Shown piece by piece: positions 21,065 to 24,703 of a stretch of 64,000 nt of DNA; positions within the stretch are counted from its first letter, which is position 1; each line of letters starts with the position of its first letter. Under the pieces are notes generated by a model that was not told where the DNA came from, ran no database searches, and saw only the letters and a program-made list of their open reading frames with translations. The stretch comes from Escherichia coli (GTDB lineage: Bacteria; Pseudomonadota; Gammaproteobacteria; Enterobacterales; Enterobacteriaceae). Both the position numbers and the translations under genes were made by a program. The DNA lies in assembly GCF_003334315.1 (NCBI RefSeq), contig NZ_QOWR01000015.1. One strand, 5' to 3'.

Positions 21065-22163
21065 TCATAACCCTGCTTTCAAACTTGCTTCGATAAATTG
21101 ATCCAGGCTGCCGTCCAGCACGGCCTGCGTGTTGCGGGTTTCTACCCCGGTGCGCAGATCTTTAATGCGGGAGTCATCAAGGACATAAGAACGAATCTGG
21201 CTGCCCCAGCCGATGTCGGATTTGTTATCTTCCATCGCCTGTTTCTCGGCATTTTTCTTCTGCATCTCCAGTTCATAAAGCTTCGCTTTCATCTGCTTCA
21301 TGGCCTGGTCTTTGTTCTTGTGCTGGGAACGGTCGTTCTGGCACTGGGTCACGATCCCGGTCGGGATGTGGGTAATACGCACCGCAGATTCGGTACGGTT
21401 AACGTGCTGACCGCCCGCGCCGGACGCGCGATAAACGTCAATGCGCAGATCCGCCGGGTTGATTTCGATATCAATATCATCATCAACTTCCGGATAAACA
21501 AACGCGGAGCTGAACGACGTGTGGCGACGACCGCCGGAGTCAAACGGGCTCTTACGCACCAGGCGGTGAACGCCAGTTTCTGTACGCAGCCAGCCGTAAG
21601 CGTAATCGCCGGAGATTTTGATCGTCACGGATTTAATACCCGCCACTTCACCTTCCGACTCTTCGATGATTTCAGTTTTGAAACCACGCGATTCTGCCCA
21701 GCGCAGATACATACGCTCAAGCATGCTCGCCCAGTCCTGTGCTTCCGTACCGCCAGACCCCGCCTGAATATCGAGGTAGCAGTCGGCGCTGTCATATTCG
21801 CCAGAGAACATACGGCGGAACTCAAGCTGCGCCAGTTTTTCTTCCAGGGCGTCGAGTTCAGCAACGGCTTCGTTAAAGGTTTCTTCGTCGTCAGCTTCTA
21901 CAGCCAGTTCCAGCAGACCAGAAACATCTTCCAGCCCCTGTTTCATTTGGTCGAGGGTGTCGACAACGGCTTCGAGGGAGGAACGCTCTTTACCCAGCGC
22001 CTGTGCGCGTTCGGGTTCGTTCCAGACATCCGGCTGTTCCAGCTCGGCGTTTACTTCTTCCAGACGCTCTTTCTTGGCGTCGTAGTCAAAGATACCCCCT
22101 AAGAACGTCGGAGCGTTCCGTGAGGTCCTGAATGCGATTATTTACCGGATTAATTTCAAACAT
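21065..22163 (-). CDS. prfB: Peptide chain release factor 2, expressed through a programmed +1 frameshift
   Basis: Frame-0 start ATG at 22161-22163 encodes [25 protein letters not shown] then hits in-frame TGA (22086-22088); the +1 frame continues from 22087 to the stop at 21065 and contains the GGQ motif. Confidence 0.95.
22085..22100 (-). promoter_or_regulatory. prfB autoregulatory +1 frameshift site
   Basis: Minus-strand sequence AGGGGGTATCTTTGAC: internal Shine-Dalgarno-like element, then the CUU slippery codon and in-frame UGA. Confidence 0.9.
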
Positions 22164-22204
22164 GGTCTGATTTCTTTTATTGAGCTAGTCAAAATGCGGT
22201 GATA

Positions 22205-22238
22205 AGAGCGGGATTGTACCCAATCCACGCTCTTTTTT
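22205..22238 (+). terminator. Terminator-like hairpin with plus-strand T-run between recJ and prfB
   Basis: About 12-bp stem (AGAGCGGGATTG / CAATCCaCGCTCT) followed by TTTTTT on the plus strand, 16 bp downstream of the recJ stop. Confidence 0.4.
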
Positions 22239-22253
22239 ATAGAGAAGATGACG

Positions 22254-23987
22254 CTAAATTGGCCAGATACTGTCGATGATAATTTGCAGGCTGCGGTTGC
22301 CGCGAAACTCGTTGATATCGAGCTTATAAGCCAGTTGCACTTCGCGCACGCCGTTATCCGGCCAGAGGGCGGTATCGACATTAAAAGCAATACCATCCAG
22401 CAGTGGACCGCCGCCGACCGGTTCGACCATCACCTTCAAATGACGTTCGCCCACCAGCCGCTGTTGCAGCAGACGGAAATGACCGTCAAACAGCGGCTCC
22501 GGGAACATCTGCCCCCACGGGCCAGCATCGCGCAGCAGCTGCGCCACTTCCATGGTCATTTCGGCCGGGCTTAACGGACCGTCTGATACCACTTCGCCTT
22601 GCAATAGCGAAGGGTCCAGCCACTCAGTAACCAGTTCGCCAAACCGTTGTTGAAAGAGTTTGAATTTATCCTCTTCCAGCGACAAACCCGCCGCCATCGC
22701 ATGACCGCCAAACTTCAGCATCATGCCAGGGTAGAGTGTGTCTAATCGCTCCAGCGCATCACGCATATGCAGCCCCTGAATGGAGCGACCGGAACCTTTC
22801 AGCGTACCGTCACCTGCTGGCGCAAACGCGATAACCGGACGGTGAAAACGCTCTTTGATGCGCGAAGCCAGAATACCAACAACGCCCTGATGCCATTCGG
22901 GGTGATACATTGCCAGCCCGCCGGGTAGCGTGTCACGGCTGCGCTCCAGTTTCTCGCACAGGGTCAGGGCTTCAATTTGCATTCCTTGTTCGATCTCTTT
23001 TCGCGTCTGGTTTAGCGCATCGAGTTCATTTGCCAGCACGCGCGCTTCGCCGATGTTGTCGCACAACAACAGCGCCACACCGACGGACATATCGTCCAGT
23101 CGTCCGGCAGCATTGAGACGTGGCCCCAGCGCAAAACCTAAATCGCTGGCGGCGAGTTTTTGTGCATCACGGTTTGCCACTTCAAGCAGCGCTTTAATCC
23201 CCGGACGGCACTTTCCGGCTCGGATGCGACTCATCCCCTGCCAGGTCAGAATGCGATTATTAGCGTCCAGCGGCACGACGTCCGCCACTGTCCCCAGCGC
23301 GACCAGATCCAGCAGTTCTGCCAGGTTAGGAATTGCGATGTTACGCTCATCAAACCAGCCCTGATCGCGCAAAAAGGTGCGCAGCGCCAGCATCAGATAA
23401 AACGCCACACCCACGCCTGCCAGTGATTTCGACGGGAAATTACAGTCGCGCAAGTTAGGGTTAATGATCGCTTCCGCTGCGGGTAATGTGTCGCCCGGCA
23501 AATGGTGATCGGTAACAATAACCGGGATGCCCAACGAGCGAGCGTGCTCAACTCCCGCATGGGAGGAAATACCGTTATCCACCGTGACAATTAACTGCGC
23601 GCCACGGGCATGGGCCTGATCGACCACTTCCGGGCTTAAGCCGTAACCGTCTTCGAAACGGTTTGGTACCAGGTAGTCGATATTGCTGCAACCAAGCGAG
23701 CGCATCGCCAGCACGCTTAGAGCCGTGCTGGTGGCACCGTCGGCGTCGAAATCACCGACCACAATAATCCGCGTTCCTTCGCGAAAAGCGTTGTAAAGGA
23801 TCTCAACGGCCTTTTCGACGCCGCTCAGTTGCTGCCAGGGCAGCATACCTTTAACACTGCGTTCCAGTTCTTGCGCACTGCGTACTCCCCGGCTGGCGTA
23901 TAAACGGCGCAGCAAGGGAGGCAATTCCGCGGGCAAGTCTGCCGTTTCATCGACTTCACGGCGACGAAGTTGTATCTGTTGTTTCAC
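22254..23987 (-). CDS. recJ: Single-stranded-DNA-specific exonuclease RecJ
   Basis: 577-aa ORF with DHH phosphoesterase motifs. Confidence 0.95.
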   Translation of the reverse strand: MKQQIQLRRREVDETADLPAELPPLLRRLYASRGVRSAQELERSVKGMLPWQQLSGVEKAVEILYNAFREGTRIIVVGDFDADGATSTALSVLAMRSLGCSNIDYLVPNRFEDGYGLSPEVVDQAHARGAQLIVTVDNGISSHAGVEHARSLGIPVIVTDHHLPGDTLPAAEAIINPNLRDCNFPSKSLAGVGVAFYLMLALRTFLRDQGWFDERNIAIPNLAELLDLVALGTVADVVPLDANNRILTWQGMSRIRAGKCRPGIKALLEVANRDAQKLAASDLGFALGPRLNAAGRLDDMSVGVALLLCDNIGEARVLANELDALNQTRKEIEQGMQIEALTLCEKLERSRDTLPGGLAMYHPEWHQGVVGILASRIKERFHRPVIAFAPAGDGTLKGSGRSIQGLHMRDALERLDTLYPGMMLKFGGHAMAAGLSLEEDKFKLFQQRFGELVTEWLDPSLLQGEVVSDGPLSPAEMTMEVAQLLRDAGPWGQMFPEPLFDGHFRLLQQRLVGERHLKVMVEPVGGGPLLDGIAFNVDTALWPDNGVREVQLAYKLDINEFRGNRSLQIIIDSIWPI

Positions 23988-23992
23988 GCGAA

Positions 23993-24703
23993 TTATTTAC
24001 CGCTGGTCATTTTTTGGTGTTCGTCGAGGAATTCTTTCATCTCTTTCGGCGGCTGGTAACCCGGAACAAGTGTGCCATTGCTCAGCACAACTGCCGGAGT
24101 ACCGCTAACGCCAAGCTGGACGCCAAGTGCGTAATGGTCGGCAATATCCACGTCGCAGCTGGCTGGTGCGACGCTTTTACCTGCCATCACATCATCAAAC
24201 GCTTTGTTTTTATCTTTCGCACACCAGATAGCTTTCATTTCTTTCTCTGCATCGCTGTCCAGCCCCTGGCGCGGGAAAGCAAGATAACGCACGGTGATCC
24301 CCAGCGCGTTATAGTCTGCCATTTGCTCATGCAGTTTGTGGCAGTAACCACAGGTAATATCAGTAAACACGGTGATGACGTGTTTTTCCTGCGGCGCTTT
24401 ATAAACGATCATCTCTTTTTCAAGCGCATTCAACTGCTTTAACAGCATCTTATTGGTGACATTGACCGGAGCCGTGCCGCTAACGTCATACATTGGCCCC
24501 TGAATGATATGTTTACCATCATCGGTGATGTACAACACGCCGCTGTTAGTCAGAACTGTCTTCATGCCAGCTACGGGCGCGGGCTGAATATCGCTGCTTT
24601 TGATGCCCATTTTGGCTAACGTTTGTTGAATTGCCGCGTCATCAGCCTGAGCAAAACCTGAAAACGCCGCTAACAAAGTAAACAACATAAAACCTTTCTT
24701 CAT
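23993..24703 (-). CDS. dsbC: Thiol:disulfide interchange protein DsbC
   Basis: 236-aa ORF with signal peptide and CGYC active site. Confidence 0.95.
   Translation of the reverse strand: MKKGFMLFTLLAAFSGFAQADDAAIQQTLAKMGIKSSDIQPAPVAGMKTVLTNSGVLYITDDGKHIIQGPMYDVSGTAPVNVTNKMLLKQLNALEKEMIVYKAPQEKHVITVFTDITCGYCHKLHEQMADYNALGITVRYLAFPRQGLDSDAEKEMKAIWCAKDKNKAFDDVMAGKSVAPASCDVDIADHYALGVQLGVSGTPAVVLSNGTLVPGYQPPKEMKEFLDEHQKMTSGK

Follow-up and report, generated by a model that had tools for sequence, protein, structure and literature searches.

The 35-base feature between recJ and prfB in the 64-kb stretch of Escherichia coli DNA analysed here (hereafter the window) can be assigned with high confidence as the core sigma-70-type promoter of the prfB-lysS operon, set within a conserved inverted repeat. 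The prfB-lysS promoter itself is already known, and its identity at these bases had been missed by the original prediction, which described a canonical plus-strand intrinsic terminator lying between two minus-strand genes. The interpretation favored here, to which a probability of roughly 55% is attached, is that the promoter resides in a hairpin that is itself under selection, that this hairpin forms a structural boundary in read-through RNA, and that the plus-strand terminator is a by-product or an auxiliary insulator.

The window represents the xerD-dsbC-recJ-prfB-lysS region of the E. coli chromosome, and its open reading frame layout agrees with the annotation of MG1655. The minus strand encodes lysS (19538-21055), prfB including its frameshift (21065-22163), recJ (22254-23987), dsbC and xerD, and the plus strand encodes idi (18947-19495), which is convergent on lysS. 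A 301-nt probe over the site yielded one match each in 5426 of 5426 complete E. coli genomes, under recJ and prfB. The MG1655 sequence is the same as the window sequence across the site, and coordinates were converted as NC_000913.3 = window + 3,014,119. This mapping was checked by the published operon 3' end at 3033612, which corresponds to window position 19493 and falls in the T-run of the lysS terminator. The recJ stop codon TAG (22254..22256, minus) and the prfB start codon ATG (22161..22163, minus) delimit a spacer of approximately 90 nt in most of 80 Enterobacteriaceae species. Along the gene strand (minus) the order of elements within the spacer is fixed: cTATAAAAAAG, the 5' arm of the repeat, G-n-TAnnnT, the 3' arm with CCCGCyC, TTATCACCGCATTTTGAC, an A-rich stretch, and the ATG.

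The inverted repeat occupies 22205..22233 (-28 to +1 of the prfB promoter) and is comprised of two 6-bp blocks, a 1-nt bulge and a 4-nt loop. Read on the plus strand from 22205 to 22238, the arms AGAGCG-GGATTG and CAATCC-A-CGCTCT enclose the loop TACC and are followed by TTTTT. The bulged base is A22227 on the plus strand (T on the gene strand), and an additional A22204-T22234 pair is possible at the base of the stem. The plus-strand T6 run (22233..22238), whose first T doubles as the last base of the stem, reads as A6 on the gene strand at -33..-28. Predicted RNA folding energies were -16.6 kcal/mol for the plus strand and -18.1 kcal/mol for the minus strand (z of about -6.3), with 0 of 200 shuffled sequences folding as well. 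The hairpin begins 20 nt past the recJ stop on the gene strand, and its base lies 41 nt from the prfB ATG. The original prediction was accurate in its description of the sequence: the 12-bp stem followed by T6 is present on the plus strand at 22205-22238, it lies between the recJ stop and the prfB start with the T-run 15 nt from the former, and the minus-strand U-tract is displaced, as the stem is followed there by TATCACCGCATTTTG and the U-run begins 11 nt past it.

Clean hairpins with a folding energy of -16 kcal/mol or lower followed by at least six T residues numbered two in the 64-kb window, both strands together; the same strict census in 40 dinucleotide-preserving shuffles gave a mean of 0.225, roughly tenfold rarer than in the window. 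The recJ-prfB hairpin was the only clean canonical terminator shape on the plus strand of the window. A looser terminator scan of the region returned 15 candidates compared to 11.7 expected, which is not significant, and at the recJ-prfB site it picked up the inner 6-bp stem only. The 55-nt element is single-copy and unannotated, and 5103 of 5426 complete E. coli genomes have it in identical form. No match near the element was returned by an Rfam 15 covariance-model scan of 19000-24500 at E of 10 or lower. A dispersed repeat (REP, ERIC/IRU or MITE) was rejected as its identity, given that it occurs in exactly one place per genome in 5426 genomes.

Evidence for the promoter was obtained from published transcript maps and from sequence conservation. 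SMRT-Cappable-seq (Yan et al. 2018, PMC6131387; supplementary files 3 and 4) reported an operon at NC_000913.3 3033612-3036324, reverse strand, comprised of b2891|b2890, which was flagged as the 'same' as a known operon (PMC6131387). The transcription start site (TSS) derived from these cap-selected long reads (PMC6131387), 3036324, corresponds to window position 22205 (minus strand), where the 3' arm has its outermost base. The -10 hexamer TACAAT (22213..22218, minus) is located in the loop and the top of the 3' arm and ends 8 nt upstream of the TSS. Between the two lies a GC-rich discriminator, CCCGCTC (22206..22212, minus), which also forms the lower 3' arm. At the -35 position, across a 17-bp spacer, the gene strand reads TATAAA (22236..22241, minus), a 3/6 match to TTGACA; the A6 run overlaps this position and the upstream part of the spacer, and the 5' arm constitutes the spacer. 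With 8 of 12 consensus matches the promoter falls below the 9/12 threshold of the promoter scan and was therefore not reported by it.

TACAAT is the sole TAnnnT on the gene strand of the recJ-prfB intergenic region (IGR). The TAnnnT pattern and a G two bases upstream of the hexamer are invariant in 48/48 aligned unique sequences and in 70/70 unique IGRs (80 species), and the hexamer variants differ in the middle positions only (TACAAT, TAAAAT, TAATAT, TAGAAT, TAAACT and TAAGAT). Invariance of the first T, the A and the final T is the signature of a -10 element, a prediction that was then borne out by the published TSS. Furthermore, discriminator positions C33, G34, C35 and C37 of alignment A1 are nearly invariant, and at the -35 position T2, A5 and A6 of the same alignment (hexamer positions 1, 4 and 5) are invariant or nearly so. 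From what is generally known of GC-rich discriminators, CCCGCTC may confer stringent control. Since the TSS is placed at the last base of the stem, the hairpin is absent from the prfB-lysS mRNA. A T at the reported TSS is unusual, and transcription may actually begin 1-2 nt from it. The upstream TATAAA was considered as a second -10 element and rejected, as it lacks the final T and is replaced in several genera by TGTAAT, with G at the critical second position; no second TSS for this box was present in the searched SMRT-Cappable-seq files.

The element resembles a sigma-70 housekeeping promoter in its TAnnnT 8 nt from a mapped 5' end, its upstream G, its 17-bp spacer and its 7-nt GC-rich discriminator, and the operon boundaries match the known prfB-lysS unit. 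It differs in that the -35 hexamer matches at only three of six positions and in that the sequence from -28 to +1 is a near-perfect inverted repeat kept by covariation, a feature that ordinary promoters do not need.

Conservation of the hairpin was examined in the recJ-prfB spacers of 80 Enterobacteriaceae species, representing 70 unique IGRs, and covariation was assessed in 48 unique E. coli-type sequences. In the latter, pairing was kept in 81% of cells compared to 37-49% for slid partners. Double-change cells numbered 44 versus 16 +/- 4.5 in shuffled alignments (0 of 500 shuffles reached 44), and such changes were found in seven stem pairs. Pair 12/36, for example, was GC in 19 sequences, AU in 14 and GU in 13, and pair 18/31 was GC in 24 and AU in 17. 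Compensatory changes thus keep the inverted repeat across the Enterobacteriaceae, indicating that the pairing itself is selected. A different stem is found in Buttiauxella, Cedecea, Franconibacter and Siccibacter, either GCGGCGTAAA...TTTACGaCCGC or GCGGCAT...ATGCCGC, and it still encloses the -10 element, which is TAAACT or TAGACT in the GCGGCGTAAA-type stem of Buttiauxella, Cedecea and Franconibacter. Replacement of the stem sequence with retention of pairing points to structure, not to a fixed protein-binding sequence, as the conserved property. As RNA, the gene strand was the more stable in 35 of 70 unique IGRs and the other strand in 35 of 70, so the asymmetry between G-U and A-C pairs does not identify the strand whose RNA is selected, and the signals from individual pairs conflict.

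The A/T-rich run beside the stem is interrupted in other lineages, reading TAATTAAAG in Salmonella and some Citrobacter, TTAATAAG in Klebsiella and AAAACAG in Kosakonia. In three Citrobacter species (L006, L010 and L012) the IGR measures 217-218 nt versus 90, owing to an insert of approximately 127 nt between the recJ stop and the -35 box. This insert lies directly upstream of cTATAAAAAAG and leaves the box, the hairpin and the prfB leader intact, and it therefore marks the upstream edge of the functional unit. Copies of this unannotated repeat are dispersed over intergenic sites, with a median of 9 per E. coli genome, and it resembles ERIC/IRU. Superficieibacter electus (L047), with an IGR of 182 nt, carries a separate canonical gene-strand terminator, CCGGCAGA...TCTGCCGG followed by GTATTTTTG, between recJ and the promoter hairpin, so that the ending of recJ and the start of prfB are physically separate in this species.

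Several further observations concern the prfB leader and the coding sequences on either side. The 5' untranslated region of prfB (22164..22204, minus; approximately 41 nt) is without significant structure (z = +0.64) and includes ACCGCATTTTGAC (22200..22188), which, at +6..+18 on the minus strand, is almost invariant across the 80 species and more so than its surroundings. In Buttiauxella, Cedecea and Siccibacter the stem ends, on its 3' side, with the leader bases CCGC and has ATTTT as its tail; the corresponding bases are unpaired in E. coli-type sequences. The minus strand also contains an imperfect direct repeat, with one copy in the 3' arm (ATCCCGC, 22214..22208) and the other at the start of the leader (ATCACCGC, 22203..22196). 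Either copy could, in principle, serve as the partner of the 5' arm, with AUUUU following the distal pairing. An attenuator-like arrangement of this kind (GCGnGGAT with ATCACCGC, then AUUUU) was judged implausible in E. coli, where counting by eye gave 6 of 8 pairs and a 19-nt loop against a main stem of -18 kcal/mol; the same count gave 7 of 8 in Pluralibacter-type sequences (L019). The direct repeat may be what is left of the longer symmetric stem that Buttiauxella has.

Within prfB, suppression of synonymous variation among 77 unique sequences is limited to the first 24 nt and the surroundings of the programmed +1 frameshift site CTTAGGGGGTATCTTTGAC (22083-22163, minus; codons 1-8 and 19-27), as expected from the known autoregulation of RF2. 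The stop codon of recJ is TAG, a rare and RF1-only codon, in most species, directly upstream of the gene for RF2. A second in-frame TAG is found 22 codons past the recJ stop, within the prfB leader (22186..22184), and since this is the next one, a ribosome reading through the recJ stop would melt the hairpin. The placement of a TAG ahead of prfB is reminiscent of the hemA UAG upstream of prfA (PMC7530605) and may be a coincidence.

Transcription is known to proceed from recJ into prfB. Isoforms reported by SMRT-Cappable-seq include dsbC-recJ, xerD-dsbC-recJ and dsbC-recJ-prfB (PMC6131387), and the sigma-E regulon table of Bury-Mone et al. 2009 (PMC2731931) groups xerD, dsbC, recJ and prfB (b2894-0), with sigma-E induction of 4.0-fold for dsbC, 2.3-fold for recJ and 4.3-fold for prfB (PMC2731931). 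Co-induction of prfB with dsbC and recJ by sigma-E indicates that read-through on the gene strand is real. As expected from the missing U-tract, the hairpin does not stop polymerases arriving from recJ. The earlier suggestion that some transcripts read through into prfB is thus supported by both the dsbC-recJ-prfB isoforms (PMC6131387) and the sigma-E data (PMC2731931).

Published 3' ends were searched for the locus. The curated Term-seq list of Adams et al. 2021 holds no 3' end on either strand between 3034626 and 3040416, a weak negative as the list is thresholded, and the searched SMRT-Cappable-seq files contain no coordinate of the form 30362xx-30363xx besides the TSS, likewise a weak negative given the thresholding and the exclusion of RNAs shorter than 1 kb. 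Neither a TSS nor a 3' end for the locus was obtained from the supplementary data of Kim 2012, Ettwiller 2016, Conway 2014, Dar & Sorek 2018 and TERMITe. The Term-seq list of Adams et al. 2021 does include a 3' end inside lysS at codon position 548 (NC_000913.3 3034626, minus; window 20507), which may relate to the dsbC-recJ-prfB isoforms lacking lysS.

The capacity of each strand to terminate was compared with a hairpin-plus-tail discriminant applied to both strands of 78 sequences with ViennaRNA energies. The formula is reportedly that of d'Aubenton-Carafa et al. 1990. Because it was combined with ViennaRNA energies, its zero point is uncalibrated and the following values are relative only: in E. 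coli the plus strand had a tail score of 4.5 and d = +18.6, and the gene strand, with the tail UAUCACCGCAUUUU, had a tail score of 2.19 and d = -18.2. On the same relative scale, passes were obtained for the gene strand in 0 of 78 sequences and for the opposite strand in 20 of 78 (about a quarter), and the opposite strand scored above the gene strand in most of the 78 (median d of -11 versus -37). The plus-equivalent strand passes in E. coli and in some Citrobacter, Enterobacter and Kosakonia, and fails in Salmonella (tail CTTAATTAC), Klebsiella and Raoultella. The T-tail is therefore patchy while the hairpin and promoter are kept, indicating that the deep conservation pertains to the hairpin and promoter and not to a terminator-grade tail.

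These results bear on the favored reading, a promoter in a selected hairpin that serves as a boundary in read-through RNA, in the following manner. In RNA that originates at the xerD and dsbC promoters, including sigma-E-driven RNA, the hairpin would form in the intercistronic part, and with no U-tract after the stem it would not be expected to terminate. Its most likely role would be that of a structural boundary, e.g. protecting the 3' end of the dsbC-recJ segment or serving in its processing. Counted against the boundary role is the lack of any 3' end or processing site at the hairpin in the Adams 2021 Term-seq and SMRT-Cappable-seq tables. On the plus strand, the hairpin is followed by the complement of the promoter A-run and would constitute a sequence-competent intrinsic terminator in E. 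coli; from its composition it would probably terminate, stopping an antisense polymerase that arrived through prfB. Such termination would probably be a side effect, or auxiliary insulation, and not what the element exists for, and it is proposed with moderate confidence that the E. coli plus-strand 'terminator' arises from the promoter A-run beside the repeat. The A-run is left unexplained by the sigma-70 -35 consensus, and it could have been selected as a plus-strand U-tract.

The element compares with known intercistronic stabilizing stem-loops (e.g. REP hairpins), which block 3' exonucleases, in being a stable hairpin without a U-tract, located just after a stop codon in the untranslated gap of a read-through RNA; unlike REP and ERIC repeats, the recJ-prfB element is single-copy. 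Compared to a canonical intrinsic terminator, the plus strand has the expected GC-containing 12-bp stem, 4-nt loop, energy near -17 kcal/mol and six U residues directly following, which places it in the same class as the lysS terminator (19498-19519), with its 3' end mapped at 3033612. Dissimilar are its orientation against both flanking genes, the retention of the U-tail in some lineages only, the lack of any known arriving transcript and the lack of a 3' end in the two tables searched, which are thresholded.

The foremost alternative, which is nonetheless regarded as unlikely, is that the element was selected as a plus-strand, antisense terminator or insulator and that the promoter was fitted into the same sequence. 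Such a terminator would stop polymerases that have passed lysS and prfB, whether from idi read-through or from spurious promoters, before they reach the prfB promoter and recJ-dsbC-xerD. In its favor are the 12-bp stem, 4-nt loop, energy of -16.6 kcal/mol and adjoining T6 in E. coli, the higher scores of the plus orientation in most of the 78 sequences (median d of -11 versus -37) and an A-run that is not demanded by the -35 consensus. A potential source of transcripts is idi. The lysS terminator (AACCCCGGCAAATGTCGGGGTT + T6, 19498-19519, minus), with its mapped 3' end at 3033612 (window 19493), is followed on the plus strand by ATGAGCATAACG; the T-run of the idi/lysS hairpin is thus on the lysS side only, leaving idi of E. 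coli without a canonical terminator of its own, a further point for this alternative. The first canonical plus-strand terminator past the idi stop (19495) is the recJ-prfB element, 2.7 kb on, with none between and no other clean one on the plus strand of the window.

The case weakens when other lineages and the transcript data are considered. The idi/lysS hairpin appears bidirectional in many other genera. The lysS terminator is flanked by an A-run as well as a T-run in Enterobacter, Kosakonia, Lelliottia and others, yet these retain the recJ-prfB hairpin, which excludes read-through from idi as the general driver of the element; as a general source of antisense RNA such read-through was rejected, being plausible for E. 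coli only. Untranslated antisense RNA would, moreover, normally be stopped by Rho well before 2.7 kb. The promoter scan found no promoter-like site on the plus strand from 19500 to 22205, and prfB holds no conserved antisense -10 element beyond what coding explains. An antisense promoter or cis-antisense sRNA was accordingly rejected, the sole candidate being TAATTT with CTGAAT (6/12) in prfB codons 3-5, the conservation of which can be put down to coding and translation initiation. Salmonella (tail CTTAATTAC), Klebsiella, Raoultella and Kosakonia retain the hairpin with a degraded T-tail, and at pair 12/36 the gene strand carries G-U in 13 of 48 unique sequences, leaving the plus strand with an A-C mismatch close to the stem base. 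No plus-strand 3' end at the site is listed in the curated Term-seq of Adams 2021 or in the SMRT-Cappable-seq tables. Termination of an antisense transcript, as entertained in the original prediction, may occur on the canonical plus strand, but neither an antisense promoter nor an antisense 3' end was found, and conservation of the T-tail is patchy.

A leaky or bidirectional terminator, at which part of the xerD-dsbC-recJ transcripts end and the rest read into prfB, is quite improbable. The hairpin does lie 20 nt past the recJ stop, the usual place for a terminator, and the dsbC-recJ and xerD-dsbC-recJ isoforms stop before the end of prfB ('ShorterEnd'; SMRT-Cappable-seq, PMC6131387). The absence of any 30362xx-30363xx coordinate besides the TSS in the searched SMRT-Cappable-seq files, one of which was covered in part, suggests that these shorter isoforms end elsewhere. 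A symmetric appearance is seen in Buttiauxella, Cedecea, Siccibacter and Franconibacter, where the stem extends to ...ACCGC and is followed by ATTTT(C/G), with the A-run upstream, and the separate gene-strand terminator after recJ in L047 was also counted in support. Weighing against it, the E. coli gene-strand tail is UAUCACCGCAUUUU, the discriminant is negative in 78 of 78 sequences, no Term-seq 3' end is recorded at the site (Adams 2021), and sigma-E induces prfB as strongly as dsbC. The element is comparable to the bidirectional terminators of convergent genes in having an A-run on one side of a symmetric hairpin, and the Buttiauxella, Cedecea and Siccibacter versions, with both an A-run and ATTTT, are closer to that form; it departs from them in that the E. 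coli T-run is on one side only, the genes are co-directional and a promoter lies inside the stem. The original proposal that the element may act bidirectionally to end recJ transcription is not supported by the gene strand, which lacks the U-tract, passes the discriminant in 0 of 78 sequences and has no 3' end in either of the two tables.

A role at the level of DNA, either as an operator for a dimeric regulator or as a supercoil-dependent cruciform tuning prfB-lysS transcription, is considered very unlikely. The repeat is centered on the -10 element and covers -28..+1, a typical repressor site, and the equal stability of the strands is what would be expected if neither RNA mattered. Opposed to this are the compensatory substitutions that change the stem, its wholly different sequence in the Buttiauxella/Cedecea group, and arms of 12-13 bp with a GC-rich base, which are short for cruciform extrusion in vivo; prfB is not known to have a regulator. 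Loose terminator-like matches are as frequent as in shuffles, which could speak for a chance hairpin that has no role apart from the promoter hexamers; this reading is effectively dismissed by the z of about -6.3, the strict census (2 versus 0.225) and the family-wide covariation and conservation.

With the promoter identified, the anomaly of a reverse canonical terminator between co-directional genes is mostly gone, as its bases are those of a known promoter, and the case offers a caution for terminator prediction, in that promoter A-runs beside palindromes can mimic terminators on the opposite strand. A more elaborate and rather doubtful proposal is that of a dual-coded boundary, in which one 29-bp palindrome would serve as the spacer, -10 element and discriminator, as an orientation-specific terminator shielding the promoter and the recJ unit from antisense polymerases, and as a hairpin setting the stability of the recJ segment relative to the prfB segment in sigma-E read-through RNA. 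If true, this would represent a compact insulator kept by covariation across the Enterobacteriaceae, with the sequence of the terminator limiting that of the promoter and vice versa. The interest that remains is modest: an essential operon, that for RF2 and lysyl-tRNA synthetase, has its core promoter inside a hairpin kept by compensatory changes. Were the hairpin shown to insulate, or to influence RNA stability in connection with sigma-E read-through, it would provide a neat case of overlapping transcription signals, albeit not a new field.
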